From NCBI GenBank assembly GCA_036675025.1, contig JAKFFN010000101.1, positions 3,975 to 67,974 of the forward strand: a stretch of 64,000 nucleotides of DNA, in the 5' to 3' direction. The stretch's first letter is position 1. Every line of letters starts with the position of its first letter. The notes beneath the pieces are model-generated. The model saw nothing but the letters and a program-made list of their open reading frames with translations. It had not been told where the DNA came from and ran no database searches. Source of the DNA: Candidatus Sumerlaeales bacterium. GTDB taxonomy: Bacteria > Sumerlaeota > Sumerlaeia > Sumerlaeales > Sumerlaeaceae. Below are positions 26,785 to 47,596 of the stretch, one piece after another. Made by a program: the position numbers and the translations under genes.

Positions 26785-26829
26785 CAACCGTACCGCTTCT
26801 GCAGAAATCGTGCGATCTTGATACTCAAG

Positions 26830-26864
26830 CCATGCACGTGCATGAACTCCGTGCACGTGCATGG
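26830..26864. other. 13-bp-stem hairpin built from two copies of the palindrome CATGCACGTGCATG
   Basis: CCATGCACGTGCA-tgaactccg-TGCACGTGCATGG, 46 nt after the sigma54-activator stop. No U-tract. Confidence 0.6.
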
Positions 26865-26935
26865 CCCTTCCATTCCTACCGCCTGGCCTAAATCTCAACA
26901 TCCATACGCCAGCCATCCCGCTCTGCTTATCTTCT

Positions 26936-27027
26936 CACGCGGCGCAGCCGCCCTTCTCACCTTCTCACCCTCTCACCTTCTCACGGCGCGAAGCGCCCCT
27001 TCTCACCTTCCACGCGGCGCAGCCGCC
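26936..27027. repeat. compound repeat element: 17-bp direct repeats flanking (CTTCTCACC)x5 and a GGCGCGAAGCGCC palindrome
   Basis: CACGCGGCGCAGCCGCC at both ends. The internal nonamer-like copies are ccttctcac, cttctcacc, ctctcacc, ttctcac and ccttctcacc. Ends ~80 bp upstream of lysA. Confidence 0.7.
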
Positions 27028-27104
27028 GAAGCTGCATTTATCCACAAATCTCCCGCGCGTGCCGCGGTAGCACTTTCTGCTAATCGGCCAAGGAGACCAG
27101 AACA

Positions 27105-30292: not shown

Positions 30293-33200
30293 TTATACAG
30301 CCGTATCCAGTTCTTCAGTATCTTCGGCTTCTTCGCCGCCATCGGGTCCGCTTCCGTTGCCGGTCGGGTTAACGTCGATGTTACGGTATTCAGGCAGACC
30401 AGTACCCGCTGGAATCAGCAGGCCCATGATCACGTTTTCCTTCAGACCGCGGAGGAAGTCGTAACGACCACGCACCGCTGCGTCGGTAAGAACGCGTGTG
30501 GTTTCCTGGAATGATGCCGCAGAGATGAACGACTCAGTTTCAAGAGAGGCTTTGGTAAGACCCAGCAGCTTCGCGCGGCCTTTGGCCTTGGTTCCACCCT
30601 TCTCTTCCGTAAGACGGTTCTCTTCTTCGAACTCCCAGCGATCCACCTGCTGTCCGTAAAGGAAGCGCGTGTTGCCTACTTCTTCCACTACGGTCTTCTT
30701 CAGCATCTGGCGGATGATGCTCTCGATGTGCTTATCGTTAATGTTCACCTTCTGGAGGCGATACACTTCCTGCACTTCGCCCAGGAGGAACTCCATCACG
30801 GCCTTCTCGCCCTTAACTTCCAGCACGTCATGCGGGCTCGGGGTTCCGTCTGTGATGATGTCGCCAGCCTGCACTCGTTCACCATCGCGCACCACCAGGT
30901 GGCGGCTTACGGGGATCGAGTAGAGCTGCTCGTCACCATTGTCAGCGGTAATGGTGAACTTGCGTGCACCTTTCGCACTGCCCTTGATGTGGATAACACC
31001 ATCAATGCGGGCGATAACAGCAGAGTCTTTCGGCTTACGGCCTTCGAACAGTTCGTCAATGCGTGGCAGACCACCCGTGATGTCCTTGCTCTTGGTACGT
31101 GAGCGCGGAATACGGGCAAGCACCTCGCCGGCGCCAACCGTGTAACCGTCCTCGAGTTCGCGGCTGAGAATCGTGCCGGAGCTGAGGGCGTACTGGGCAA
31201 TGACTTCGCCCTTCTTGTCCACGATCTGCACCGACGGATGACGTTCATCCTTATGCTCTGAGATCAGGCGCTGAGTAACTTCTGTCTCCGGGTCGAACTC
31301 TTCCTTCAGCGTGAGACCGACTACGATATCCACCAGCTTTAGCGTGCCTGACTGTTCAGACAGGATGGGGGTGAAGTGAGGATCCCACTCAACCAGGCGA
31401 TCACCGCGCTTGACCGGCGAACCTTCGCCGACAAGGATGCGGGCGCCGTAGGGGACGCTGGGCAGGGTCTGAACAACGTTGCCGTTATCATCCTGCACAA
31501 CCATCGAGCCGCCACGGCCGATAACAACCTTGAAGCCATCCTTGTGGTCAACAGTCGTCATATCACGGAAGATGATCTTACCGTCGCTGGAAGACTGGTA
31601 CCAGCCCTCAACGTCAACCGAAGCCGTACCACCAATGTGGAAGGTACGCAGGGTCAGCTGGGTACCAGGTTCACCGATGGACTGCGCTGCGATGATGCCG
31701 ACGGCCTCGCCCAGTTCCACCATGCGGCCGGTGGAGAGGTTACGGCCATAGCACTTGCAGCAAACGCCTCGCTTTGTCTGACACGTAAGAACGCTGCGGA
31801 TCTGAACGGAACCGATACCGGACTTTTCGATCTGCTTTGCCTGAACATCGCTGATCATATCGTTCTTCTTAACGATCGTCTTGTTCGTCTCCGGATCCAC
31901 AACCTTCTGCACGGCCACACGGCCGGCAATACGATCGCTCAGCGGTTCCAGTTCACGTTCACCCGTACGCGTTACCTCGATGATGGCGCTTACGCTGATG
32001 CCGTCCTGGGTGCCACAGTCTTCCTCGGTGATGATCAGGTCCTGGGCCACGTCGCACAGGCGGCGGGTCAGGTAACCAGCGTCAGAGGTCTTCAGAGCCG
32101 TATCAGCCAGACCCTTACGTGCACCGTGGGTGGAGATGAAGTACTCAAGCACCGTAAGACCTTCGCGGAAGTTCGAGATGATCGGGCTCTCAATAATTTC
32201 ACCTACGTCACCGGTGATCTTCTTGGTAGGCTTCTGCATCAGACCGCGCATACCGGCTAGCTGACGAATCTGGGCTTCGTTACCACGAGCGCCAGACTGC
32301 GACATGATAAAGACCGGGTTTAGACCCTTCTGGTTCTTCTGCATGAGGCTCATCATCTCGGCTGCCACGGCGTCGGTTGCCAGCGACCATTCGTGAATGA
32401 TCTTCGAATAGCGCTCACCATAAGTGATCAAGCCCTTGGAGTAGTGCTTCATCACCTGGTCAACCTTCTTACGGGCTGCCTCAAGGATTTCGGCCTTGCG
32501 GGGCGGGATTACCATGTCGCCGATGGCGATGGAGATGCCTGCGATTTTCGCCTGCTGGTAACCAAGGTTCTTCATGGCGTCCAGCATCTTGGCGGTGCGC
32601 TTTGGCCCTGACAGTTTGTGAGCGACAGCTACAATCTGGCCAAGAAGGCCTTTAGTCATAACCGTGTTGCCAAAAGGCAGCTTGCTGTCGAAGTAGTTAA
32701 TCTCGTCCGGCAGAATCGCGGAGAACATGCAACGACCCGGGGTCGTCTTTATCTTCGCGCCGTCTGACATGCGGACCATAACTTCTTCGTGCAGCGTAAC
32801 CTTCTTGTGGTTAAGAGCCATAATGGCCTCTTCACGAGAAGCAAACTGCGGCATCAGGCGCTGCTTTTCCTTATCCGTCTTGGCCGCTGCATAGCGCTCT
32901 TCGTTGGGCACCATCTTGGTAATGTAGAACAGACCCAGCACCATGTCCTGTGCAGGCGTAGCAATCGGCTTACCGTTTGCAGGCGAGAGAATGTTGTTCT
33001 CTGCCAACATCAGGTTCATAGCCTCAAGCTTGGCCTCAGTGCTCAGCGGCACGTGCACAGCCATCTGGTCACCGTCGAAGTCGGCGTTGAAAGCCGTACA
33101 AGACAGCGGGTGAAGACGGATAGCCTTACCCTCAACCAGCTTCGGCATGAAAGCCTGAACGCCCAGACGGTGTAGCGTAGGTGCGCGGTTCAGCAGAACC

Positions 33201-34480
33201 GGGTGATCCTTAATAATGTCGTCAAGGATGTCGTAAACTTCCGGGGCTTCACGCTCCATCATCTTCTTGGCGGCCTTGATCGTGTTCACATAGCCGCGCG
33301 CTTCAAGCTCACGGATAATGAACGGATCGAACAGTTCCAGGGCCATCTTCTTTGGCAGACCGCACTGGTTAAAGTTCAACTCGGGACCAACCACGATTAC
33401 GGAACGGCCGGAGTAGTCAACGCGCTTACCGAGCAGGTTCTGACGGAACCGGCCCTGCTTGCCCTTCAGCATGTCGCTGAGCGACTTGAGCGGACGGTTG
33501 TTGTGGCCTTTGGTCGGGCGCGTACGGCGGCTGTTATCAAACAGCGCGTCGACGGCTTCCTGCAACATGCGCTTTTCGTTGCGCAGGATGACCTCAGGAG
33601 CTTTCAGTTCCATCAGCTTCTTCAGACGGTTGTTACGGTTGATAACACGGCGGTAAAGGTCGTTAAGATCAGAAGTCGCAAAACGGCCACCATCAAGGTG
33701 AACCAGCGGACGCAGTTCCGGCGGCAGAACCGGCAGAACTTCCATCACCATCCACTCAGGGTTGTTATCGGAGCCGCGGAAAGCCTCCACAACCTTCAGG
33801 CGCTTAATGATCTTGTTACGGCGCTGGGCGCTGGTGGCCTGGCGCATTTCGATAGCCAGCCGGGTAGCCAGTTCCTCGATGTCAATCTTCCGAAGCATTT
33901 CGCGGACAGCTTCCGCACCAATGCGCAGGTCAATCTTGTCACCGTAGACTTCGCGGTACTTGCGCACCTCGTCGTCCGTCAGGATCTGCTTTTCCTTCAG
34001 CGGAGAATCACCTGGGTTCACCACGATGAAGTTCTGGAAGTAAATAACCTTACCCAGGTCCTTCACCGAAATGTCGAGCAGGCTGGCGATACGGCTGGAT
34101 GTGCCCTTGTAGAACCAGATATGGCAGACGGGAGCAGCCAGTTTGATATGACCCATGCGCGTACGGCGCACTTTGCTCTCGATAACTTCCACACCGCAGC
34201 GATCGCAAACGATGCCCTTATACTTGATACGCTTATACTTGCCGCAGGCGCATTCCCAGTCCTTGGTCGGGCCGAAGATACGTTCGCAGAACAGGCCGTC
34301 TTTTTCCGGCTTAAAGGTACGATAGTTAATGGTTTCCGGCTTCTTGACTTCACCGAAGCTGGAGAGGTCCATGTCGTCAAAACGCGCAGTGCTCAGGCCA
34401 ATGCGGCGCTCAGCAGCACGGCTGTTACGGCGCGACCACGCAAGGATGCGGTCCGGAGAGGCAATGGTGATTCGAGCCAC
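30293..34480 (-). CDS. rpoC: DNA-directed RNA polymerase subunit beta'
   Basis: [30 protein letters not shown], the NADFDGD catalytic motif and all conserved beta' blocks. Start ambiguous: the track uses GTG at 34480 (see findings). Confidence 0.95.
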
Positions 34481-34810
34481 AGCATGCAGGGCGTTGAGGT
34501 CAACTTCTTCATCACGCTCGGTGCCCAGCGGGATCGAGCGATAGCGCTTTACCGGACCTTCGTCGTATGTACGTACGCCTTCAAATGCCAGTACCTCACG
34601 CGGAGTCTTCGACTCACGCTTGGTGGTACGGGCCTTTGCAGTACGTGTCTTTGCCGCTTTAGGTGCTGCTACTTCTACGTCAGCAGCTTCAGCTTTGGAT
34701 GCCTTCTTGGTAGCGATGGTAGTATCCTGCCTTTCCGGGTCGCTTATATCTTAAAACTGGTTTCGGTCATTGAGGGTTAAAGAGGGAGAGGAAACTGCAA
34801 GCCTGGCGGC

Positions 34811-37800
34811 TTACAGCTCCTCATCCTCGAAGTCGTCTCCGCCACGCTCTGCAAAGCTCACGTCTTCTTCCACGCCGCTCAGCAGTGAGTCGTAGGGGCT
34901 TTCGCCTTCATCCTCGTCTAGTATCGATTCATCTTCTGTAAGGAGTTCCATGTTAAGGCCAAGGGCCTGCAGCTCTTTCACAAGAACGTTGAAGCTCTCC
35001 GGAACGCCCGGCTTCAGGTGATTTTCACCCTTGATGATGGACTCATAGATCTTCGTACGGCCCTGAACGTCATCAGACTTAACCGTCAGAAGTTCCTGCA
35101 GCGTATAAGCTGCACCGTAGGCCTCAAGGGCCCACACTTCCATCTCACCGAAGCGCTGACCACCGAACTGCGCCTTACCACCCAGCGGCTGCTGGGTAAC
35201 CAGCGAGTACGGACCAATCGAACGAGCATGCATCTTGTCGTCGACCAGGTGAGCCAGCTTCAGGATGTACATAACACCCACAGTCACCAGGCGGTCAAAG
35301 GGTTCACCCGTCGCACCGTCAAACAGACGAACCTGTCCGGTCGGGTTAACATCCAGCAGCTTCTCTTCGTCAGAAAGACTGGAGAACTTGCGCTTGTCGC
35401 CCTTCTGCTTCATGATGTGCTCACGGGCACGAATCAGTTCCGCTTCAATCTGCGCTTCCTCGGCACCGTCGAATACCGGCGTCGCGTAAGACACGCCCAG
35501 GGCAATAGCCGCCCAGCCAAGGTGTGTTTCCAGAAGCTGACCAACGTTCATTCGCGAAGGAACACCCAGCGGGTTCAGCACGATGTCAACAGGTGTGCCA
35601 TCAACCGTGTACGGCATATCTTCCATCGGCATGATCTTGGCCACAATACCCTTGTTGCCGTGACGTCCGGCCATCTTGTCGCCAACCTGGAGTTTACGTT
35701 TTACCGCCACGTAAACCTTCACCAGTTTGATAACGCCCGGAGGCAGCTCGTCGCCCGTCTTGATACGGTCGACCTTGTTGCGTGCAACGTCGTCAATCTC
35801 GGTAACGCGAACAGAGTGCTTCTGGTAAAGACGCTTAACATCAGCGCCCGCCTGACCGTCCACAGGCAGCATGCCCGTGCGCAGGCTGCGCTTTACGTAG
35901 TTAACCGCCGACTCTGTAACCTTCTGGCCCGGCTTCAGTTCCACCTGGCCGGTTTCAAAGTTAATCACCGGCTTCTCGATGGTCTTGAGCAGTTCCTTCA
36001 GGTTCTCCGTAAACTCGATCTCGACATTCTGCAGCTCAACATCACGTTCCTTCTCGATGCTTTCGATGCGGATCTTGTCCTCACGGTCGCTCTTGGTTCC
36101 ACGTTCCTTGCGGCTGAACGCCTTGATATCCACAACGGTGCCATAGGTGCCGGGCGGCACCTTCAGCGAAGCGTCGCGTACGTCGCCGGCCTTTTCACCA
36201 AAGATCGCGCGCAGAAGCTTTTCTTCCGCCGTCAGCTCGGTCTCACCCTTAGGCGTAACCTTACCCACCAGGATGTCACCGGGGATAACTTCAGTTCCGA
36301 TAAGAACATGACCATTTTCATCCAGCTTGGCCAGGGCCTCTTCGCTTACGTTCGGGATGTCGCGGGTAATCTCTTCCTTACCCAGCTTCGTATCCCGGGC
36401 ATCCACTTCAAACTCTTCAATGTGGATCGACGTAAATACGTCTTCCTTCACCACACGCTCAGAAATGATGATAGCATCTTCGAAGTTATAGCCGCCGAAA
36501 GGCATGAAAGCCACACGCAGGTTCTGACCAACCGCCAGTTCGCCCTGGTCGATACCCGGACCATCAGCAATAACCTCATTCATATCAACCTTCTGGCCCG
36601 CCGAAACAATTGGCTTCTGGTTGATACACGTGTTCTGGTTCGAGCGCTTGTACTTGGTCAGGCGATAAGTATCCAGCTGGCCGTTCTCGTTACGAAGAAC
36701 AATCTCCGTAGCCGTTACGCGCTCAACCGTACCCTCATTGCGGGCAACCACACAGGATCCGGAGTCAATGGCGCACTTGTGCTCGATACCGGTACCAATC
36801 GTGGGAGCGTCAGTGAACAGCAGGGGCACGCCCTGCCGCATCATGTTCGATCCCATCAAGGCGCGGTTGGCGTCGTCGTGCTCAAGGAACGGAATAAGCG
36901 CCGCGGAAACCGAAACCAGCTGCTTCGGGCTCACGTCCACGTAGTCTACTTCGTTAACAGTAACCTTCGGGAAGTCGCCCCGATGGCGACTCAGCACCGT
37001 CTCGCTCTTAAAGCTCTTGCCGTCTTCGGCCACCTCAGATGCCTGCGCCACGATGTACTCATCTTCCACGTCGGCCGTCAGGTACTGCGTAGCCTTCTGC
37101 ACCACGCCATCCTTAACCTTACGGTAAGGCGACTCAATGAAACCGAACTCATTAATGCGGGCATAGGAAGCCAGCGATGAGATAAGGCCGATGTTCGGGC
37201 CTTCCGGCGTTTCAATCGGGCAGATACGTCCATAGTGGGTGTGGTGAACGTCGCGGACTTCAAAGCCTGCGCGATCGCGGCTCAAACCACCCGGTCCCAA
37301 TGCGCTCAGACGACGCTTGTGCGTCAGCTCGCTCAGCGGGTTGGTCTGGTCCATAAACTGGCTGAGCTGGCTGCGACCAAAGAAGTCTTTAACCGAGCTA
37401 ACCAGCGGCTTTGCGTTGATCAGGTTATGAGGCAGCAGGTTTTCCAGGTCCACGATAGCCATACGCTCGCGGGCCGTCTTTTCCATTTCCGTCAGGCCCA
37501 GGCGAACCTGGTTCTGCAGAAGCTCACCCACGCTGCGCACGCGGCGGTTACCCAGGTGATCGATATCGTCGATGTCCAGGTCTTCCTCAGCAATCTTCGA
37601 AAGGTGCTTAACAATAGCAACCACGTCAGAAAGCTGCAGCGTGCGGCTGCTCTCGTCTTCCAGCTTGAAGCGGCGGCTGATCTTGTGGCGGCCTACCGCA
37701 CCCAGGTCATAGCGCTTCTCGTTGAAGAACATGTCGTCAAACAGGCGCCTTGCGCTCTGCAAGCTGATCGGGTTGCCCGGACGCATGCGCTTGAAGAACT

Positions 37801-38941
37801 CGATGAGGCTCTCTTCATAGGTGCGCACCTTGTCTTTCGACATCGTGCTCATTACTACGTTAGGCTCTTCTTCGTTAACTTCAACCAGGTGGATCTTGCG
37901 CACACCGGCCTTGCCGAACTTGCGCAGCTGCGCCGTCGTGATCTTCTCAAACGTATCAGCCAGGATTTCACCCGTGCCCTGGTCCACAACATCGCGGCCC
38001 AGGATGCGGCCGATCAGATGCTCATAACCGATAGCCACGTTCAGGTGAACTTCCTTGATGCCGTGGCTCTTCAGCGCTTCCGTAGCCTTCTTCGTTACCT
38101 TGGCGCCCTTCTGCACCAGCAGCTTGCCGGTTTCAGGGTCCAGCACTTCTTCAATAAACTCATTGCCCAGGAACTTCTCAACAAGGTCTGTTACCTTAGA
38201 GGCACCCTTGGAAAAGTCATCCAGCGCAACTTCCTTCGTAGCAAAAAACTCAGATACGATCTGTTCGTCGTCCATCAGGCCGAAGCAGCGCATAAACGTG
38301 GTTGCCGGCAGCTTGCGCTTACGGTCAACCATTACATACATAACGTTGTTAATATCGACTTCGAACTCTACCCACGCGCCGCGATAAGGAATAACGCGCG
38401 CGCTGAACAGCGTCTTGCCGTTCGGGTGAATCGATGACGAAAAGCTTACGCCCGGGGAACGATGCAGCTGGGAAACGATAACGCGCTCGGCGCCGTTCAC
38501 AATGAACGTACCCTGCTCAGTCATCAGGGGAATTTCCCCCATGTACGTTTCCTGCTCTTTAATGTCTTTAATGTCGGTTTCGTTGGTTTCGATATTCGTC
38601 TCGCGCACGATCAGCTGCAGCTTAACCTTCAGCGGCGCAGCAAACGTCATCCCACGGTCGATACACTCTTTCTCAGAGTATTTCGGCGCACCAAACGAGT
38701 ACTCCACAAACTCAAGCGTGGAAGGCGTGCTTGCGCTGGTTACAGGGAATACGCTGGTAAAGGCTTCCTGGAGCCCGGCATTCTCGCGGACATCCGGCGG
38801 AACGTTGAATTGCAGGAACTCTTCATAGCTCTTCTTCTGGGTTTCCAGGAGATAAGGCATCTCCATGGTTTCCGGGATCATCGCAAAATTGATACGGTAC
38901 GAGCTGTTAGGCTCACGGCGGCTACCATTTTTCGAAGCCAT
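34811..38941 (-). CDS. rpoB: DNA-directed RNA polymerase subunit beta
   Basis: 1376 aa with conserved beta blocks throughout. Acidic C-terminus DFEDEEL. Confidence 0.97.
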   Translation of the reverse strand: MASKNGSRREPNSSYRINFAMIPETMEMPYLLETQKKSYEEFLQFNVPPDVRENAGLQEAFTSVFPVTSASTPSTLEFVEYSFGAPKYSEKECIDRGMTFAAPLKVKLQLIVRETNIETNETDIKDIKEQETYMGEIPLMTEQGTFIVNGAERVIVSQLHRSPGVSFSSSIHPNGKTLFSARVIPYRGAWVEFEVDINNVMYVMVDRKRKLPATTFMRCFGLMDDEQIVSEFFATKEVALDDFSKGASKVTDLVEKFLGNEFIEEVLDPETGKLLVQKGAKVTKKATEALKSHGIKEVHLNVAIGYEHLIGRILGRDVVDQGTGEILADTFEKITTAQLRKFGKAGVRKIHLVEVNEEEPNVVMSTMSKDKVRTYEESLIEFFKRMRPGNPISLQSARRLFDDMFFNEKRYDLGAVGRHKISRRFKLEDESSRTLQLSDVVAIVKHLSKIAEEDLDIDDIDHLGNRRVRSVGELLQNQVRLGLTEMEKTARERMAIVDLENLLPHNLINAKPLVSSVKDFFGRSQLSQFMDQTNPLSELTHKRRLSALGPGGLSRDRAGFEVRDVHHTHYGRICPIETPEGPNIGLISSLASYARINEFGFIESPYRKVKDGVVQKATQYLTADVEDEYIVAQASEVAEDGKSFKSETVLSRHRGDFPKVTVNEVDYVDVSPKQLVSVSAALIPFLEHDDANRALMGSNMMRQGVPLLFTDAPTIGTGIEHKCAIDSGSCVVARNEGTVERVTATEIVLRNENGQLDTYRLTKYKRSNQNTCINQKPIVSAGQKVDMNEVIADGPGIDQGELAVGQNLRVAFMPFGGYNFEDAIIISERVVKEDVFTSIHIEEFEVDARDTKLGKEEITRDIPNVSEEALAKLDENGHVLIGTEVIPGDILVGKVTPKGETELTAEEKLLRAIFGEKAGDVRDASLKVPPGTYGTVVDIKAFSRKERGTKSDREDKIRIESIEKERDVELQNVEIEFTENLKELLKTIEKPVINFETGQVELKPGQKVTESAVNYVKRSLRTGMLPVDGQAGADVKRLYQKHSVRVTEIDDVARNKVDRIKTGDELPPGVIKLVKVYVAVKRKLQVGDKMAGRHGNKGIVAKIMPMEDMPYTVDGTPVDIVLNPLGVPSRMNVGQLLETHLGWAAIALGVSYATPVFDGAEEAQIEAELIRAREHIMKQKGDKRKFSSLSDEEKLLDVNPTGQVRLFDGATGEPFDRLVTVGVMYILKLAHLVDDKMHARSIGPYSLVTQQPLGGKAQFGGQRFGEMEVWALEAYGAAYTLQELLTVKSDDVQGRTKIYESIIKGENHLKPGVPESFNVLVKELQALGLNMELLTEDESILDEDEGESPYDSLLSGVEEDVSFAERGGDDFEDEEL

Positions 38942-39354
38942 ATTAAGACAGATTCCTCCTTGGCCGCTCCATCAGGAGTCCGGCACGGGCGAAGCAGGTT
39001 TTGGCAAAGGGTCCCGGGCACGCGCCATCCACAACGCTCACGCGCATAGACGCAAATCCTCCAAGGCACACGGGTTCCAAAGCAAGTAATCCTACCCCAG
39101 CCAGGCTTCCCATATTCTCAACAAAATTCGGGCCAACCGGGAGATGAAAGGCATCTCCCCTATGGAGTGGTGTTAGCCCTACCCTCCCCATCGACGAATG
39201 CAAGCATTTTTCTAACGGGGTCCGTCACCTTCTGCATCCAAGCTGCCCAGCCCTGCACTTGCGACCCTTGATACCGTGGCGAACTCTGGAGTAACTTGCT
39301 CCAGGCGCGAAACACGCAAAAGCTGTCGGCTGCGTCTTTCCTTGATTTCGAAAC

Positions 39355-39383
39355 TTGACAATTCCCCCTGCCTTGTTAAGTTT
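39355..39383 (+). promoter_or_regulatory. candidate sigma70-type promoter for the beta-helix gene
   Basis: TTGACA at 39355-39360. A weak -10-like TAAGTT ~16-17 nt downstream. In a 565-bp divergent region between rpoB and the beta-helix gene. Confidence 0.25.
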
Positions 39384-39507
39384 CTTTTGGTGGCCCGGAG
39401 CCCTCAGTTGCGACTCTGCAAAGACATCAAGAGACAGCCTCATGCTGAGACGCACAAGATTCAAATCTTTTGTTAGCAAATATCAAGCAAGTCAAAAGGA
39501 GTTCAGC

Positions 39508-40449
39508 ATGAAGCACATCATCATCGCGGTCTTACTGGCGTTTCCTGCAGGACAATCCTGGTCAGGCTCCCTTACTCCGCCTGGTCCTCCTGCACCTACA
39601 ATGAAGCCGCTCGACGACATAGAACCGCGCCGGCCCATTCGACTAGCTGATCTCCCCTTGTCGATAAACAGTTCGGGCAGCTTCTACCTGGCAGAAAACA
39701 TTAACTTTGCTACCCCCGGAGTAGTTGCCATATCTGTAAACGCTCCGGTTGTTACTATTGATCTGAATGGGTTTACCTTGAGCGGCCCGGGATCAAACAC
39801 TGGTGCAAGTGGCTTCGGCATCTCCGTAAATGCAGCCGACAAGCTCGTGGTTAAAAACGGTACCATTCAAAACTGGCGTGGAAATGCCATCTTCGCTTTT
39901 CCCGCCCTGGACTGCACAATTGACAACGTCACGGTTCAGCGGAATGGGCAGCACGGTATCTTTCTTACGACGGGGACGATAACAAACTCTACGGTTATCC
40001 GCAATGGTGACAATGGAATCTTGCAGGTTAATGGCAGCGCCATAGTCAAAAACAGCATCTGCTCTGATAACAGGCTTACCGGGATATCCTCTTCCAAAGG
40101 GAACATAATCATAGAGGATAACATCTGCAATGGCAATGGAGCAGGCGGCATCCTGGCTTCAGAGGCAAGCGGACGCATAATTGGCAATACCTGCACAGGC
40201 AACAATGACGGCCTACTGCTAGAAGGTTCTCAAAGCTATGTTGATGGTAACAGCGTCTATAATAATACCATGAACGGAATACGAAGCTATACGTTTATCT
40301 TCAAAGATGATCACTCCGTTGCCGTGAGAAACACAGCAGCAGGAAACGGCACAAACTACTCCTTCTCAACAACAACCAAATCTGGTCCTATCGTGACCAC
40401 CAACGGTGTTATCAGCAGTACAAATCCCTGGGCAAACTTTGTCCACTAA
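39508..40449 (+). CDS. secreted right-handed parallel beta-helix repeat protein (pectin-lyase fold, NosD-like PbH1 repeats)
   Basis: ATG after AAAAGGAG. Signal MKHIIIAVLLAFPAGQSWSGS. Repeated GNxCxGN/NGxxG turns (NICNGNGAGGIL, GNTCTGNNDGLLLEG). Confidence 0.75.
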   Translation: MKHIIIAVLLAFPAGQSWSGSLTPPGPPAPTMKPLDDIEPRRPIRLADLPLSINSSGSFYLAENINFATPGVVAISVNAPVVTIDLNGFTLSGPGSNTGASGFGISVNAADKLVVKNGTIQNWRGNAIFAFPALDCTIDNVTVQRNGQHGIFLTTGTITNSTVIRNGDNGILQVNGSAIVKNSICSDNRLTGISSSKGNIIIEDNICNGNGAGGILASEASGRIIGNTCTGNNDGLLLEGSQSYVDGNSVYNNTMNGIRSYTFIFKDDHSVAVRNTAAGNGTNYSFSTTTKSGPIVTTNGVISSTNPWANFVH

Positions 40450-40463
40450 AGAGGGTATCTGGA

Positions 40464-41003
40464 ATGAAACCGTCCACCCTTTTGGCAAGCCTGTCTTTCA
40501 CAGTCTTATTTCCATTACTCACCACAACTGCGGCATACGCCACTACCAACATCGATCCGGCATTTGTCGGCAAGAAGTTTGGCTGGAGCGAAAACGGCGG
40601 GTGGACGAATCTACAGGGCGACCTCGCCAATGGTGTGCATGTGGGCCTGGCGCACCTACAAGGCTTCGCGTGGCATGAGAACTTTGGCTGGATCAATTTC
40701 GGCAGTGGTAACCTGGCAGAAGAACAGCAGTACACGAATGCTACGCGCGATGACTTCGGGGTCAACATTGACACTGAGGGCAAGCTCTTCGGCTTTGCCT
40801 GGGGTGAAAACATCGGCTGGATATCTTTCGATACTCTCGCCGCAAGCGGAGCCCGGGTGTCTATAGTTTCCGCTACTGGCCGCTTCACCGGTCATGCCTG
40901 GTCGGAAAATGTAGGCTGGATTTCGTTCGATACAGTTGATCCTCTCCATGTTGCCCATACCCTCAGCGATACTGCCGCGAACGACTGGAACCTGTTCGAG
41001 TAG
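40464..41003 (+). CDS. secreted Trp-rich repeat protein (4 x G[FH]AWxENxGWIxF repeats), family unknown
   Basis: Signal peptide. Four tandem ~30-aa repeats (FGWSENGGWTNL, GFAWHENFGWINFG, GFAWGENIGWISFD, GHAWSENVGWISFD). Only 14 nt downstream of the beta-helix gene. Confidence 0.6.
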   Translation: MKPSTLLASLSFTVLFPLLTTTAAYATTNIDPAFVGKKFGWSENGGWTNLQGDLANGVHVGLAHLQGFAWHENFGWINFGSGNLAEEQQYTNATRDDFGVNIDTEGKLFGFAWGENIGWISFDTLAASGARVSIVSATGRFTGHAWSENVGWISFDTVDPLHVAHTLSDTAANDWNLFE

Positions 41004-41377
41004 AAGCTGGCCACACCTTAAAATAAGGGGACATCCAAGATAAGTATTAATGGTTAGGAGACAAGGAGATCTCCTACGGCGTAAGGTTGTGACTCCCCCC
41101 CCCCGTTAAATTTGTTCCCGATCTACCAAGTTGTGATTGGCTTTTTGTCTTCTGGTCTTAGTGGTGACAAGCTGACAGGCTTGCAGCCAGACAGGAAACT
41201 TAAATCTCCGCCGTACCCGCTTCTGTCAGCCCGGTCGGAAAATTCCTCATTGCCAAGGTGGACGACATTAACCTCTCCGGTGATCCAAACCCGTCAGACA
41301 ACGTGCTGGTTTCGGGCCGTTGTCTTAAGACGACCTGTCAAGCAAACCCTCACAATGCAAAGGCAGTACGGTTGAAA

Positions 41378-41665
41378 GCGACAACTAGGATAGCCCAAAT
41401 CAAAGTAACCGATCCGCCAGGATCGAACACCGCCGCCTTGGGTAGACGCCACCCTTCCGCCCCTGTCGCGAAGCGACAACTAAGATAGCCCAGGACAAGG
41501 TGAACGATCCGCCAGGATCGGACGCCGCCGTCCTGGGTAGACGCCACCCTTCCGCCCCCTGTCGCGAAGCGACAACTAAGATAGCCCAGGACAAGGTGAA
41601 CGATCCGCCAGGATCGGACGCCGCCGTCCTGGGTAGACGCCTCCTCCCGCCCCAGCCCCGGCAGG
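41378..41665. repeat. three tandem copies of a ~97-bp unit with nested inverted repeats (candidate structured RNA or REP-like element)
   Basis: Unit GCGACAactaagatagCCCAGGACaaggtgaacgatccgccaggatcggacgccgccGTCCTGGGtagacgccacccttccgcccccTGTCGCgaa. Copies B and C are identical for 73 nt and copy A is ~85% identical. Ends with a GCCCC-ggca-GGGGC hairpin. Confidence 0.75.
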
Positions 41666-41728
41666 GGCGATACCCATTCTTCCGCCAACACATAATCATC
41701 TTAGCCTCAAAATTCTCATTGCACAAGC

Positions 41729-43168
41729 GTGTCAGACCTAAAACTATGGTCGTCTTACCATTGTGTAATCTGGACTCTTTGCGTGGCTGAAAAAATCTCC
41801 ACATCCATTCCCGGCTTCATAGACCTGCTTCTGGATGCCGTCTGTATCGTAGACGAAGAAGGCCGATATGTCTACGTCAGTGCGGCCTACGAGCAGATTT
41901 TTGGTTACACGCCCGAGGAAATCATTGGCCGCAGGATGATCGATCTGGTGGCGCCGGAAGACCGCGAACGAACATTGGCTGCCGCCAATAACGTAATGGC
42001 TGGCAATTCCCATCTCCATTTTGAAAACCGTTACATCCGGAAAGACGGCCGCGTCGTCAACATCATGTGGTCAGCCCGCTGGTCCCAGGCAGACCGCCTT
42101 CGCATAGCTGTCGCGCGGGACATCACCGACCTTAAACACGCGGAGGCATTACAGTCTGCCACCTACGCCATTTCCGAAGCCGCACACACGGCCGAAGATC
42201 TTCCCGCGCTTTTCAAACAGGTCCAGGCAGTTCTCGCCCGTCTTCTCCCGGCTGACAACTTTGCTGTCGGGTTACTCGACGAAACCACCGGTAACCTCTC
42301 TCTCAAACACCTCGACACTAACAGTTTCCCGGCAGCGTATGCCGACATCGCCGCTTGTCGTACCCTATGCACATACGTAGCAGAAACCCACCTTCCGCTG
42401 CTTCTGACCCCACACGATAAAGATCACCCCATGTACCCGCTCCTGTCGCACCACGGCGAAGCGTGCTGGCTTGGCGTCCCACTTACGACCCACAACAAGA
42501 CTATTGGCGCCCTTGGCCTGATGAGCATTTCGGGAGACTGTCATTATACCGCCCGGCACAGAGACCTGCTCCAGTACGTGAGCACCCAGGTAGCCACCGC
42601 TATAGAACGCAAACAGCTTCACGAGCGGCTGCAATATCTTGCCCAGTATGATTCGCTTACAGGCCTTCCCAACCGGGCACTTCTGCATGATCGCCTGGAC
42701 CACGCCCTGGCTCTCGCCCGCAGGAATCACGGGAAACTGGCAGTTCTGTTTGTTGATCTGGATCAATTTAAATCTGTAAACGATCAGCTTGGCCATGCCG
42801 AAGGCGATGCGCTTTTGCAGGAAATTGCTTTGCGCCTGAAAAAGTGCGTCCGCGAATCTGACACCGTCGCACGCCTTAGCGGTGACGAATTTGTCATTAT
42901 ACTTGAGAGCCTGAAGGCGACCTCCATTTCTGACGATGCCGGTTCCAGTTCCACTGTTGGGGCTAATAAAATCATCTCGAAACTCAAAACATCAATCAAT
43001 GAACCCATCGTACTAGGCAGTCACACCATCAAGATGACGGCAAGTATCGGCCTGGCCCGGTTCCCCGAACATGGCGATACTCCAAATCAACTGCTAAAGC
43101 ACGCCGACAAGGCCATGTACCAGGCAAAGCGGCAACACCGGATTATCTACTCCGATCCGATTCATTAA
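41729..43168 (+). CDS. PAS-GAF-GGDEF diguanylate cyclase-like protein (SGDEF active-site variant)
   Basis: PAS (VCIVDEEGRYVYVSAAYEQIFGYTPEEIIGRRMIDLV). GGDEF domain with RLSGDEF in place of GG[DE]EF. Start uncertain. Confidence 0.8.
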   Translation: MSDLKLWSSYHCVIWTLCVAEKISTSIPGFIDLLLDAVCIVDEEGRYVYVSAAYEQIFGYTPEEIIGRRMIDLVAPEDRERTLAAANNVMAGNSHLHFENRYIRKDGRVVNIMWSARWSQADRLRIAVARDITDLKHAEALQSATYAISEAAHTAEDLPALFKQVQAVLARLLPADNFAVGLLDETTGNLSLKHLDTNSFPAAYADIAACRTLCTYVAETHLPLLLTPHDKDHPMYPLLSHHGEACWLGVPLTTHNKTIGALGLMSISGDCHYTARHRDLLQYVSTQVATAIERKQLHERLQYLAQYDSLTGLPNRALLHDRLDHALALARRNHGKLAVLFVDLDQFKSVNDQLGHAEGDALLQEIALRLKKCVRESDTVARLSGDEFVIILESLKATSISDDAGSSSTVGANKIISKLKTSINEPIVLGSHTIKMTASIGLARFPEHGDTPNQLLKHADKAMYQAKRQHRIIYSDPIH

Positions 43169-43176
43169 CCCACGCT

Positions 43177-43880
43177 TCTTCAGGCAACAAAAGCCCTCCC
43201 CGAAAACACACCCTTAGCCACCCCTTCCCAGGCAACAAAAGCCCCCCGAAAACACACCCTTATGGAGTGCTGGTGGCTTGCCACCGCTATGGAAAACCTG
43301 CCACCACGCGACACTGCGAAACCACCCGCCACCCCAGCAAGGCGCAATGCGCGCCCTGCGTCTGTCCTAAAAGGAACCAACCCATAACCGCCCCAGAAGA
43401 ACATACATGTTCGCCGTTCCCGAAGGAAACCAACCCATAATAGCCCCGGGTGAAACGGAAGGACCTCCGTTCCCGAAGGGAACCAACCCATAATAGCCCC
43501 GGGTGAAACCCGGGGTTTCGGATACCCCATAAACTGACTCCGAAGGAGTCCAACACTAAAGCGCCAAAAAGAAGTTTAACCCATCCCGACTTGTCCGACT
43601 TTTACACGCCTCCGCCCCCCGAAAACACACCCTTATGGAGTGCTGGTGGCTTGCCACCGCTATGGAAAACCTGCCACCACGCGACACTGCGAAACCACCC
43701 GCCACCCCAGCGAGGCGCAATGCGCGCCCTGCGTCTGTCCTAAAGGAACCAAACCATAACCGCCATAGAAGAACATACATGTTCGCCATTCCCGAAGGGA
43801 ACCAAACCATAATAGCCCCGGGTGAAACCCGGGTTTCGGATATCCCATAACCTGACTCCGAAGGAGTCGAACACAAACCG
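43177..43880. repeat. nested macro-repeat: two ~270-320-bp direct copies (period ~371 bp, ~95% identical) with internal ~50-bp sub-repeats and conserved hairpins
   Basis: CCCCGAAAACACACCCTTA occurs 3 times. ttcccgaagg(g)aaccaa(c/a)ccataatagccccgggtgaaac occurs 3 times. Hairpins CCCCGGG-tgaaa-CCCGGGG+TTTCGG and GACTCC-gaa-GGAGTC are conserved in both copies. Confidence 0.8.
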
Positions 43881-44133
43881 CGATTATTCCAGGAACCGTT
43901 GGTCTCATTCGATGCCAACGCTATCCGGTGACGCGCAACGCCTGTACCTTTGCCGAGCGTCGCTATGGCAATCCAGAATCTGTTTTTGCGCCTTTTGTGC
44001 TTTTTTGCGGCTAAGATTAAGGGTCGTTAAGCGTCCCTAAGGGTCATTGCGGGAATTCCCCTGGCGGTTTCGTCATGCTCAAATGCGTGCATTCGTTAAA
44101 AAACCGTACCAGCCAAAAGGAGAAACGCCCGCC

Positions 44134-45402
44134 ATGCTCACCTTGCACCCCATTTCCGCCAGGCACTTCGATAGTTATGTACTTAATACATCGACCCGCC
44201 GACTTGATGTTGTTAGACTTACGGAATTAACCTCAAGTTTTTTTCGCCCCTGTGGAAAACTTAAAAAACTTTTTTCGAAATTAAATCGCGTTCTTACAAA
44301 CGTAACCACTGTAAAATCAACGCTGGAACCCGTTATAAATCCGTTTTGGCCCACATTCGCAACACTAACAAAATCAACGCTGAAGGCCGTCAAAAATCCG
44401 AATAATTCTTACAAAGCATATTTCAAAGATTTTCCACAACTTCCACAACTTCCCATTGATTGCTCTGCCATCGTAAAGGTCTATAGCTCGGTGCATCAGC
44501 CAAACTTCCATAGCTTCTGCTGGCGACAGGATCATCTCCGATTTGAACTCCAATCCGACGATCCTGCCGTAGTCTCCCGCGTCCGCGAAGTTTTACGCTT
44601 CTGGAACGCCGAAGCACCACCCGTGTCGGGAGACGAAACACAGTCCTTGCGTCCATCCCTGGTATCCACTGTAACTCTTGCCTCCGATGGCTATCACTTT
44701 ACCGGAAGCCAGGCAACGGAACCTGTTAAGCTGAAAGACATTGCCGCCGTAATCCGGGCCGCTGAGACCGATGCCGCCATTGCAATTCTTAACCAGACTG
44801 ATCACTTTCTCACAGTCCACGGCGCCCTGCTCGCGCGGGATGATGATGCGGTTTTAGTTGTCGGTCCGTCCCAGTCTGGCAAGTCTACCACCTCCTGCGC
44901 TCTTTGGGCCGCCGGCTGGCAGCTGCTGGCGGATGACGTTACGATCCTTCACCCGACCGATGCCACCGCCTCTCCCCTGCTGCGCCGCGTAAGTCTGCGC
45001 CACCCGAGCCGCCAGCTTCTCGGCGATGCGTTCTGGCAGCGCATGACGGCAGCAAGCACCTGCGACCCGACCCCGGAAGGTTACGTGTTCCACCCCGATG
45101 AGATCGAGGGAATATCCCGCGCCCGCAGCGCGCGCCTGCGTGCCATCATATTCCTGCGTCGCCTGGGGGCCAATGATCCCGGACCGGGCCGCCTCTTACC
45201 TGTTATTGAAGCGCAGGCGCTGCTCGCCCTCTCGCCCTACACCAATGTGATCCGCCACGGAGGCATGGGCGAAGCGATGACGCGCCTGGCGCCGCTGCTG
45301 AACCAGGTGCCCTGCTACGATATGGGCCGTGGCTCGCTGCCCGACATGGTGGAAACCATCGAGACCCTGCTTACGCCGGAGGCTGCCTTTGAGCGCCTGT
45401 AG
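44134..45402 (+). CDS. HprK-related P-loop kinase (RiPP/lasso-type tailoring kinase family) with low-GC N-terminal extension
   Basis: VLVVGPSQSGKSTTSCALWAAGWQLLADD resembles the HprK/P Walker-A-to-ADD block. It lacks the HprK RGLG signature. ATG 44134 has AAAAGGAG SD. Alternative GTG start at 44491 gives ~303 aa. The track TTG at 44047 is rejected. Confidence 0.6.
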   Translation: MLTLHPISARHFDSYVLNTSTRRLDVVRLTELTSSFFRPCGKLKKLFSKLNRVLTNVTTVKSTLEPVINPFWPTFATLTKSTLKAVKNPNNSYKAYFKDFPQLPQLPIDCSAIVKVYSSVHQPNFHSFCWRQDHLRFELQSDDPAVVSRVREVLRFWNAEAPPVSGDETQSLRPSLVSTVTLASDGYHFTGSQATEPVKLKDIAAVIRAAETDAAIAILNQTDHFLTVHGALLARDDDAVLVVGPSQSGKSTTSCALWAAGWQLLADDVTILHPTDATASPLLRRVSLRHPSRQLLGDAFWQRMTAASTCDPTPEGYVFHPDEIEGISRARSARLRAIIFLRRLGANDPGPGRLLPVIEAQALLALSPYTNVIRHGGMGEAMTRLAPLLNQVPCYDMGRGSLPDMVETIETLLTPEAAFERL

Positions 45403-45403
45403 C

Positions 45404-47596
45404 ATGACCCGCCCGGCGGTAGCACCCACCATCGCCATTCTCGTGACCCGCCGGTGCAACATGACCTGCAGCCACTGCAGCGTGGAGAGCGCGCCGCGGG
45501 TGAACACACCGGATCCCACCGAAGAAGAACTCTACCGCCTGATCCGCGAATCGGCTGCAGCCGGCGTCCACGCTGTGCAGTTTACCGGCGGCGAACCCAT
45601 GATGCGCCAGAAACTGGTTTTGCAACTCATGGAAAAAGCTCACCGCCTCGGCCTCGCCAGCGGCCTGACCACCAACGGCTTCTGGGGCAAGAACCCGCGC
45701 ACCGCCCGGACGACGCTGCGCCACATGATTCGCCACGGCCTGCAGTACATGACCGTCAGCTATGACCGTTACCATGCGGAGTTCATGGGCCCGCAGCCCA
45801 TCCTGAACATCGCATCCATCGCCCGCGACCTCGGTTTCTTCTTTAACGTGAACGTGACCCGCACGCTCCACGATGAGAACCTGGACGAGTACGCCCGCCT
45901 CTTTGGCAATCTTCCCAATGTGCGCATGCGTCTTTACGATGTGCAGCCCGTCGGACGTGCCCGCAACTTTGATCTGCCAAATCTCCGCGCTGAAACCGAA
46001 GGTTTTTGTAATGCCGCAGCGCAGGCCACCTTCACTGAAGATGGGCGGATGATCGCGTGCAATGGCCCGGCTTATTTTGACTCAGCTGAATCGCCCCGGC
46101 ACATTGGAGACACCCGCAGCGAGTCCGTTGCTGATCTGCTCCGCCGTCACTGGGAAGATCCCATCCTGGATACCATCCGCACCTTTGGCCCTGCCGGCCT
46201 GCGCGATGAACTGAAAAAAGAGGAGCAGTTTGCTCCAGCCTTCGACCGTCGCTTCGCCGGACAGTGCGACCTGTGCCAATGCATTACCACGAACCCGGCA
46301 ATGGTCAGCCACCTGCGCAGCCGCCTGGCTGACACCCGCCACCAGGCCATGCGCGTGGCAAAGTGGAGCCTGATAAATGCCGCCCGCGCCTCCGGCGAAC
46401 TCACCCGCGACCACGCGAATGGACCTGGCATCTGCAGCGTCTTCTATGATAGAACTACCACCGGCCAGTGGCCTGCTCATGCGGAAAAGCTGTTTGGCCG
46501 CGCCGATATCGATTGGGACCATATCGCCCACTACCTGGCCGGGTGTGGCCTGGCTAATGCGCTTTCCACGGCAGCAGGTCAGCAGGAGCTGGCACGCTGG
46601 GCCCCCGGTTATTTTACCGAGACACTACAGAAGCGCGCGATGCGGGATGCTCTGCGGGAACTCAGCCATCGCGAAACATTCGCTAAGCTGCACGAGGCGC
46701 TGAGCGCCCTGAACCTGCGAGGGGTGCTGCTAAAAGGGGCCGCGCTCTACCTGGGTGAGAAGGCCGCAAACATGAACCCGCTGCGCATCCCGGGTGATAT
46801 TGATCTATGGATCGAAAATCCCGCGGCAGCCGCGAAACTGCGCCGTTATCTGATCGAAGATGGCTTCAAGGGCGACCCCGATGCGCCGCGAACCGGACCC
46901 CATCACCTGGCGCCTATTGTCTGGAGAAACTCTCTCGTCGAAATCCATACCGGCGTGATGCCTTCTTTCTGGGGACTGCCGGAAAAGCAGATGTCGGCGG
47001 ATGCCCGGCCACTCCCCGGATGGTCCCCTTTCTTTACGCTTTCGCCGGAAGACATGCTACTCCACGAAGTCATCCACAGCACCACTCACCTGTACAGTTT
47101 CGGCCTGAAGCTGGCGATCGATATTTTCCGGATACAGCGCCTGGTTGCAGGTGACAACTCGCTCTCTGCAGCCATTGATTGGCAGACGGTAATTAGTCGC
47201 GCCAATGCCACCCATTGCCCCATGGCCTTCTGGATTCCGCTGGTGGCGCTCAGCCGCGGCCTGGCAGGCCAGCTGCCGGTTCCGCCAGAAGTGCTGGACC
47301 AGGCTCCGCATGGAGAACGTTTCCGCAGGCTGGGCCTTGTGGCGTATAAACGGCTCTTCACAGCCACCGACGATGCCGATAAGATGAACCCGTTTACTCG
47401 AAACGGCATCTTCCTGATGCTGCACAACGGCACGATCAGTCGCCTGAGGTATTTAGCAGAACTGACGCGCGACGACGCGGCCGAATCGCGCCGCACCCAC
47501 CTGGGCAGCTCCGGCGGCCAGGGTTGGCGCAACCTGAAAACTCACCTGCGCCACGCCTGGCTAGACCTGCGCACCTACCGCCGGGCTATCAAGTAA
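45404..47596 (+). CDS. radical SAM / SPASM-like domain protein fused to PF14907-type nucleotidyltransferase
   Basis: ATG 1 nt after the kinase stop. CNMTCSHC radical-SAM cluster motif. Cys-rich auxiliary region (C-x16-C, CDLCQC). The C-terminal ~350 aa resemble the uncharacterised nucleotidyltransferase family found in lasso-peptide clusters (GDIDLWI..). Confidence 0.75.
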   Translation: MTRPAVAPTIAILVTRRCNMTCSHCSVESAPRVNTPDPTEEELYRLIRESAAAGVHAVQFTGGEPMMRQKLVLQLMEKAHRLGLASGLTTNGFWGKNPRTARTTLRHMIRHGLQYMTVSYDRYHAEFMGPQPILNIASIARDLGFFFNVNVTRTLHDENLDEYARLFGNLPNVRMRLYDVQPVGRARNFDLPNLRAETEGFCNAAAQATFTEDGRMIACNGPAYFDSAESPRHIGDTRSESVADLLRRHWEDPILDTIRTFGPAGLRDELKKEEQFAPAFDRRFAGQCDLCQCITTNPAMVSHLRSRLADTRHQAMRVAKWSLINAARASGELTRDHANGPGICSVFYDRTTTGQWPAHAEKLFGRADIDWDHIAHYLAGCGLANALSTAAGQQELARWAPGYFTETLQKRAMRDALRELSHRETFAKLHEALSALNLRGVLLKGAALYLGEKAANMNPLRIPGDIDLWIENPAAAAKLRRYLIEDGFKGDPDAPRTGPHHLAPIVWRNSLVEIHTGVMPSFWGLPEKQMSADARPLPGWSPFFTLSPEDMLLHEVIHSTTHLYSFGLKLAIDIFRIQRLVAGDNSLSAAIDWQTVISRANATHCPMAFWIPLVALSRGLAGQLPVPPEVLDQAPHGERFRRLGLVAYKRLFTATDDADKMNPFTRNGIFLMLHNGTISRLRYLAELTRDDAAESRRTHLGSSGGQGWRNLKTHLRHAWLDLRTYRRAIK

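Follow-up and report, generated by a model that had tools for sequence, protein, structure and literature searches.

The three tandem repeats at 41376-41653 of the window (the whole 64-kb stretch of DNA analyzed here, from the candidate phylum Candidatus Sumerlaeota, BRC1) are most likely selfish DNA of the REP/BIME kind rather than genes for three small RNAs; we consider it probable that they form a head-to-tail cluster of three REP-like double-hairpin DNA repeats, which belong to the Acido-Lenti-1 family (Rfam RF01687) or derive from it. Judged from its sequence, the array is best explained as a divergent member of this known REP-like family that falls short of the formal Rfam threshold, and its 96-nt unit appears to be a family element with an enlarged P1 hairpin, repeated in head-to-tail order, with the 3' hairpin of the family at the end of the array.

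The existence of three tandem units, as stated in the original prediction, is borne out by TRF (41376-41653; period 96, 2.9 copies, 91% matches, score 451) and by a repeat search, which returned three unit copies spaced by 95 and then 96 nt. All three have the same orientation and, read on the plus strand, the same order of parts: a P2 hairpin, a linker of about 10 nt leading to ATAG, a P1 hairpin with an extension of about 33 nt, and a C-rich spacer. Unit A (41376..41470) is a diverged edge copy with only the 3' half of its junction hairpin (GCGACA, 41378-41383), unit B occupies 41471..41566, and unit C (41567..41647) matches B up to 41641, after which its spacer departs (CTCCTCCCGCCCC). P2 lies across the A/B junction (41464..41478; TGTCGC-GAA-GCGACA, 6 bp with a GAA triloop) and, with the same sequence, across the B/C junction (41560..41574). 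The linker ACTAAGATAG (41479..41488; equivalents at 41384-41393 and 41575-41584) ends in ATAG, which in all three units stands directly 5' of the P1 palindrome, as an unpaired tag at its foot. In unit B, P1 (41489..41537; -33.4 kcal/mol) consists of an 8-bp base, CCCAGGAC/GTCCTGGG, bearing the extension of about 33 nt with the cap CGATCC-GCCA-GGATCG; P1 of unit C (41585..41633) has the same sequence, and that of unit A (41394..41442) is degenerate. The spacer TAGACGCCACCCTTCCGCCCCC (41538..41559) has equivalents at 41443-41463 and 41634-41647, and the array spacers are rich in C and poor in G. After unit C, the 3' end of the array is formed by a terminal GC hairpin (41648..41669; core GCCCCGGCAGGGGC at 41655-41668), also present as predicted. 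Neither the 96-nt unit nor its parts were found elsewhere in the 64-kb window.

Several details of the units needed revision. The identity of B and C covers 86 nt (41460-41545 equals 41556-41641) rather than 73; between A and B, identity is about 88%, the differences being 11 substitutions and one 1-nt indel; 10 of the 11 substitutions fall within P1, and six are G-to-A changes on the plus strand. Each unit had been said to close on itself through GCGACA and TGTCGC; A and B can do so, but C has no TGTCGC partner, and comparison with the family shows that the phasing was off, TGTCGC and GCGACA forming a local 6-bp hairpin over each junction. The proposed inner 8-bp stem (CCCAGGAC/GTCCTGGG) is intact in B and C, with A keeping six of the eight pairs on the plus strand, and the GGACG-ccgc-CGTCC element exists solely as an alternative pairing that the minimum-free-energy fold does not use.

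Compared with shuffled sequences, the array folds strongly on the plus strand (z = -5.5) and less so on the minus strand (z = -1.9). Within the array, however, the strand preferences conflict: P1 of B and C is more stable on the plus strand, where it includes a U.G pair (-33.4 vs -30.2 kcal/mol), whereas P1 of unit A, with its substitutions, pairs better on the minus strand (-21.0 vs -13.5 kcal/mol on the plus strand). In the family at large (131 distinct metagenome copies), P1 shows rich covariation and its non-Watson-Crick pairs are balanced, with 14 G.U against 12 A.C; this lack of strand bias is more in keeping with a hairpin in DNA than with a strand-specific RNA. The oligonucleotide d(GCGAAGC) is well known for the stability of its DNA mini-hairpin, which would suit a putative single-stranded DNA role for P2. 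The published RF01687 seed differs in its non-canonical pairs, with A.C at 38 and G.U at 8 (supplementary file of PMC2864571). Taken by itself, this A.C excess would favor the strand opposite to the orientation annotated by Rfam; the excess was traced to a few Lentisphaera subfamilies, and is gone in the metagenome set. Counts of gene orientation in the published flanks (PTS 38, STP 10) were set aside, because they are confounded by flanks of apparently unequal length, about 100 nt upstream and about 300 nt downstream.

No structured-RNA family reached its Rfam gathering threshold anywhere in the window. With a small search space, cmscan placed Acido-Lenti-1 at both junctions of the array, on the minus strand, with 11.6 bits, GA-cis (13.6 bits) being the sole match above it in this array; a second repeat region of the window (array 2, see below) scored 19.4 bits, and both values lie far below the RF01687 gathering score of 37 bits. 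We also rebuilt a model, R1, from the 69 distinct sequences of the published seed (Weinberg et al., 2010). With filters off, R1 placed six of its top seven matches over the whole window in the two arrays, all on the minus strand. In array 1 these were separate local matches to P1 with GGCUAU (12.6 bits) and to P2 (10.2 bits), scores that are within background, since a chance match of 13.2 bits was obtained in 80 kb of relatives. Those 80 kb, from six Sumerlaeota relatives, gave background matches and no family copies.

The relation to RF01687 emerges from the order and the sequence of the parts. An RF01687 member has an 8-bp P1, GGCUA at the 3' foot of P1, a U/A-rich linker of about 12 nt, and a 5-bp P2 with a 3-nt loop; the minus strand of the array presents these parts in this order, as CCCAGGAC-(extension)-GUCCUGGG-CUAUCUUAGUU-GUCGC-UUC-GCGAC. 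Its junction reads GGGCUAU-N7-GUCGCUUCGCGAC, preceded by an 8-bp P1 starting with CCCA, and both GGGCUAU and P2 (GUCGCUUCGCGAC; GUCGC-UUC-GCGAC) are identical to Koribacter seed sequences. Set against the Koribacter seed sequence CCCACCUCUUACGAGGUGGGCUAUUGCAUUUCGUCGCUUCGCGACU, the array sequence CCCAGGAC-(extension)-GUCCUGGGCUAUCUUAGUUGUCGCUUCGCGACA has the same 8-bp P1, and also agrees with it in GGGCUAU and in all 13 nt of P2, the linkers being similar. GGCUA(U/A) occupies the position of the array linker in seed sequences and metagenome copies alike, and continuity with accepted members is provided by the loci recovered with the 20-nt junction pattern, in which most R1 matches score 37-64 bits. 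The likeness thus extends to the 8-bp P1, the GGCUA(U/A) with its U/A-rich linker and the 5-bp P2 with a UUC triloop, in the same minus-strand order. The array differs in that its P1 carries an extension of about 33 nt instead of a 4-nt loop, in that its linker, at 11 nt, is one shorter than the usual 12 and has no GCC ahead of P2 (GGC after P2 on the plus strand), and in its host, Sumerlaeota, the family having been described from Acidobacteria and Lentisphaerae. The published seed also includes sequences from Planctomycetes and Geobacter, and its Lentisphaera copies stand in tandem, 69-200 nt apart (PMC2864571).

The junction pattern GTCGCGAAGCGAC-N6-12-ATAGCCC was found at more than 120 loci in JGI metagenomes, against a chance expectation of about 5 that is based on a rough estimate of collection size. 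A search of 92 of the loci with R1 gave 157 matches (E <= 0.01), mostly at 37-64 bits and the weakest at 21; these count as genuine members of the family. The original prediction had named dispersal at dozens of sites as the mark of a REP-type element; such dispersal is seen for the core module, at 120 metagenome loci at least, and not for the whole 96-nt unit, a pattern for which had no match in GTDB representative genomes or in JGI metagenomes. Among viral contigs, a 19-nt pattern had five matches, with about 14 expected by a rough chance estimate, and the one inspected looked like chance; the array 2 pattern had none.

On the GAA strand, family members consist of P2, GGCAU...AUAG, a P1 of 20 nt, a spacer of about 22 nt (for example, GGGTAGGCGTCGAGCCC in L068) and a second short GC hairpin, present 3' of P1 in 83 of 110 copies. 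The core of the terminal hairpin of the array, GCCCCGGCAGGGGC, exactly matches the 3' hairpin of the family member L069. Insertions in P1 also have precedents, eight of 80 copies having P1 hairpins of 29-80 nt, and so do tandem arrays: L088 holds 2.9 copies of a unit of 60-68 nt, with a linker, GCGACAACAGGTAATAGCC, close to GCGACAACTAAGATAGCC of the window, and L029 has arrays with periods of 73 and 390 nt. Family copies stand singly or in inverted pairs, in clusters and in tandem arrays, and many loci hold copies both ways round; by crude ORF calls, they mostly adjoin the 3' ends of genes, on either side and in either orientation, and no class of gene is tied to them.

At seven loci, an inverted pair of motifs surrounds 520-640 nt that encode a protein of about 150 residues with HUH and Tyr motifs, one of the seven genes being frameshifted. 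The four proteins scanned matched PF01797 (Y1_Tnp) with 84-110 bits; two were scanned with NCBIfam models and reached 75-81 bits for the IS200 family, above the cutoff of 55, and 31-43 bits for the RAYT equivalog, below the cutoff of 80. By tblastn, Y1 genes lie beside the motif in 14 loci, with motifs on both sides in all 12 complete cases; in 10 of these 12, the nearest flanking motifs are arranged (-)...gene...(+), whichever the strand of the gene. Loci with RF01687 around Y1 genes are L012, L029, L033, L058, L066, L067, L074, L080, L088, L109, L123 and L131. Homologues are named "REP element-mobilizing transposase RayT" by JGI and IS200/IS605 family by NCBI, the latter from Pyrinomonadaceae and Planctomycetes. 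This adjacency of repeat and transposase is seen in other organisms only: no Y1 transposase gene is present in the 64-kb window, and none was seen in 80 kb of Sumerlaeota relatives. None of the papers searched links Acido-Lenti-1 to Y1 transposases. Di Nocera et al. (2013; PMC3733652) describe, as TIRtrons, genes for tyrosine transposases that have inverted repeats on either side, some of them double palindromes; among these are a sharply defined acidobacterial group of the enzyme (TIRYT) and a TIR family that is repeated in Koribacter.

A second repeat region assigned to the same family (array 2, 43170..43880, plus strand) follows directly after the stop codon of the GGDEF gene described below. 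It consists of a 373-bp higher-order repeat, present twice, with 53-bp sub-repeats and many small hairpins, and contains Acido-Lenti-1-like modules on the minus strand at 43468-43515 and 43788-43834, the former being the best such match in the window (18-19 bits). A 17-nt sequence of array 2 (ATAATAGCCCCGGGTGA) is common to the family members L016, L041 and L073. Moreover, perfect hairpins on the plus strand of the window have a GAA triloop in 12 cases and TTC in two, against a shuffled mean of 1.7 for both loops combined, and eight of the 12 GAA hairpins sit within the two repeat regions. In both regions, a GAA hairpin is followed, 7-10 nt on, by ATAGCCC and a second hairpin opening with CCC. 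From this shared order we infer that arrays 1 and 2 have a module in common, though they cannot be aligned overall; copies of the module form two clusters 1.5 kb apart, with no others in the 64 kb. Elsewhere in the window, on the plus strand of the intergenic region 26790-27100, 8-mers CCTTCTCAC alternate with GC hairpins bearing GNA triloops (GGCGC-GAA-GCGCC once, GCGGC-GCA-GCCGC twice), and two CATGCACGTGCATG palindromes are also found; this may be a further type of small-hairpin repeat of the Sumerlaeales genome.

The array lies in an intergenic region (41003 to 41783) upstream of rpoB. The rpoC and rpoB genes occupy 30293-38941 on the minus strand; they are followed, on the plus strand, by a beta-helix gene (39355-40449), a gene for a 179-residue protein (40464-41003), the array, a PAS-GAF-GGDEF gene (41783-43168) that starts 118 nt downstream of it, the second repeat region, a ScmC/HprK-like gene and a radical-SAM/NTP_transf_5 gene. 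The relatives by rpoB are, where named, Sumerlaeaceae MAGs, and metagenomic ones reach 90-92% identity. In one relative, L001 (rpoB 91% identical), just 284 bp (L001 7619-7902) separate rpoB from the ScmC-like gene, which marks the segment from 39137 to about 44440 of the window as an accessory island of about 5.3 kb (39137..44440, the right boundary being approximate) that holds both arrays. A second relative, L003, has an RHH/MazF-like toxin-antitoxin pair at the same spot (L003 1-990), and more distant relatives carry different content again. On these sequence comparisons, the region upstream of rpoB (38942-44440) is a variable hotspot among close relatives. The rplJ-rplL genes do not precede rpoB in the window, in L001 or in L003. 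The nearest homologues of the GGDEF protein reach only 56-58% identity; those that are named come from proteobacteria.

Further along (44443-47596), the ScmC/HprK-like gene and a gene for a radical-SAM + NTP_transf_5 fusion protein are kept beside rpoB in L001 and look like a RiPP-type maturation pair; the TTG start called at 44047 for the ScmC-like ORF is probably wrong, with the true start near 44443. With the ScmC-like protein as query, no related loci were found in the genome-contig collection. A 15-nt inverted repeat (41698-41712/44003-44017, complementary at 14 of 15 positions) brackets the GGDEF gene and array 2; about 0.2 such pairs are expected in 3.1 kb, roughly chance level, and we gave it no weight.

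Three tandem genes for a trans-acting small RNA, the reading put forward in the original prediction on the model of Qrr redundancy, now seem very improbable. The strong predicted plus-strand structure (z = -5.5) and the covariation of P1 across the family would suit such genes, and the motif was rated as probably RNA, and not cis-regulatory, when first described (Weinberg et al., 2010; PMC2864571), Rfam giving its type as "Gene; sRNA". But the array matches no Rfam family at its gathering score and has neither a promoter-like site nor a plus-strand terminator-like site around its units, which abut without spacing and share a P2 over each junction. In addition, strand evidence is contradictory within the array (A favoring the minus strand, B and C the plus strand) and absent from the non-canonical pairs of the family (14 vs 12), the orientation of family copies relative to their neighbor genes is mixed, and these copies are also arranged as inverted pairs, as clusters and on the flanks of transposase genes. 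The REP/BIME-like element, which had been offered as the other possibility, is the reading that this dispersal, with its inverted pairs, clusters and flanked Y1 transposase genes, upholds.

A selected cis-acting RNA, either a 5' leader of the GGDEF gene or a 3' stabilizer or attenuator of the 179-residue protein gene, its origin from a repeat being incidental, is somewhat easier to entertain, though still unlikely. REP/BIME elements are generally known to stabilize the upstream mRNA, and in E. coli they are documented as 3'-exonuclease barriers or partial terminators. The array also stands between co-directional plus-strand genes, 118 nt before the GGDEF start at 41783; B and C fold slightly better on the plus strand (-33.4 vs -30.2 kcal/mol), with a U.G pair, and the spacers are C-rich and G-poor. 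Against this, no gene class is tied to the family, the GGDEF homologues are so distant (56-58% identity) that no orthologous leader is available for comparison, and near-identical B and C beside a decaying A resemble the dynamics of a neutral array; such an effect on RNA would also be compatible with the REP-like explanation, as a secondary one. Riboswitches and c-di-GMP leaders were considered and dropped for want of Rfam support, and integron attC sites were rejected on the lack of an RYYYAAC/GTTRRRY pair.

Hardly any weight can be given to an unrelated local minisatellite or a protein-coding repeat of 32 residues. The period of 96 is divisible by 3, and long minus-strand ORFs (41350-41691 and 41400-41804) run through the array, but the A-to-B spacing of 95 breaks the reading frame, the substitutions cluster in the hairpin and show no codon pattern, and the sole domain match of the ORFs is a sub-threshold DUF1206 (17 bits, cutoff 26.2). 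With no credible domain match, these overlapping ORFs look like repeat artefacts, as had been supposed. An unrelated origin, for its part, is ruled out by modules held in common with a dispersed family.

As a cluster of REP-like DNA repeats, the array shares with REPs and their RAYT partners a short palindrome, rich in GC, whose 5' foot carries an unpaired tetranucleotide tag: ATAG in the array, GTAG in classic REPs (Nunvar et al., 2010, PMC2817692; Bertels & Rainey, 2011, PMC3116915). Like REPs and BIMEs, the repeats are extragenic and adjoin gene 3' ends, and occur as singletons, dimers, clusters and head-to-tail reiterations that include flanking DNA. As in REPtrons and TIRtrons, family members flank a Y1/HUH transposase gene, of about 150 codons, in inverted orientation (PMC3733652). 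The differences are also clear: the unit is a double hairpin (P2 and P1) with a long spacer, 96 nt in all, whereas classic REPs have 20-40 nt; the tag is ATAG or TTAG and not GTAG; the three local copies are direct repeats rather than alternating ones as in classic BIMEs; the transposases of the family pass the IS200 cutoff but fall below that of the RAYT equivalog (31-43 vs 80 bits); and, unlike a REPtron, the array has no transposase gene nearby. The subterminal hairpins of IS200/IS605 elements and the MITE-like PATEs offer a further possible analogy, in that a Y1 HUH partner would recognize single-stranded DNA hairpins; PATEs resemble the present repeats as non-autonomous copies bearing hairpins. 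The left and right ends of IS200/IS605 elements are, however, distinct hairpins on the same strand, whereas here a single motif stands on both sides of the gene as an inverted pair, as it does with RAYT/TIRYT.

By analogy with these systems, a Y1 enzyme working in trans on hairpins in single-stranded DNA would have seeded the copies, the ATAG tag and the foot of the palindrome serving as the putative site of recognition and cleavage, as in GTAG-tagged REPs and their RAYTs. The local triplication may then have arisen through replication slippage or unequal recombination; B and C, being identical, suggest that a duplication took place very recently, and A, at the edge, would be decaying. As it lies between co-directional genes, the array is probably transcribed within an mRNA, in which, between the 179-residue protein gene and the GGDEF gene, hairpins of -33 kcal/mol could block 3' exonucleases or partly terminate transcription, as REP/BIME elements do in E. 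coli. There is also a slim chance that a REP copy with an enlarged P1 has been exapted as RNA, as a co-transcribed leader of the PAS-GAF-GGDEF gene. If so, a c-di-GMP synthase would have its read-through or translation tuned by three hairpins of -33 kcal/mol and by spacers rich in C (CCUCC-like), and the copy number of the array would be a heritable rheostat.

For the locus itself, the array is of little importance: it is best taken for repeat DNA that lies in an accessory island, not for a new RNA regulator, and its annotation as three sRNA genes is unwarranted. The presence of the array does imply that the Acido-Lenti-1 family, or a derivative of it, reaches the candidate phylum Sumerlaeota, where it marks a variable hotspot next to rpoB. 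For the family, our observations indicate that what Rfam files as an "sRNA" with no known function has the behavior of a DNA repeat of the REP/TIR type, associated with Y1 transposases. The whole of Acido-Lenti-1 may be the repeat that a Y1 transposase of the RayT/TIRYT type recognizes in DNA, which is likelier than the exaptation of an enlarged copy as RNA, and its range may span Acidobacteria, Planctomycetes, Lentisphaerae and Sumerlaeota. Such a reading would re-label Acido-Lenti-1 and would explain its odd genomic distribution.
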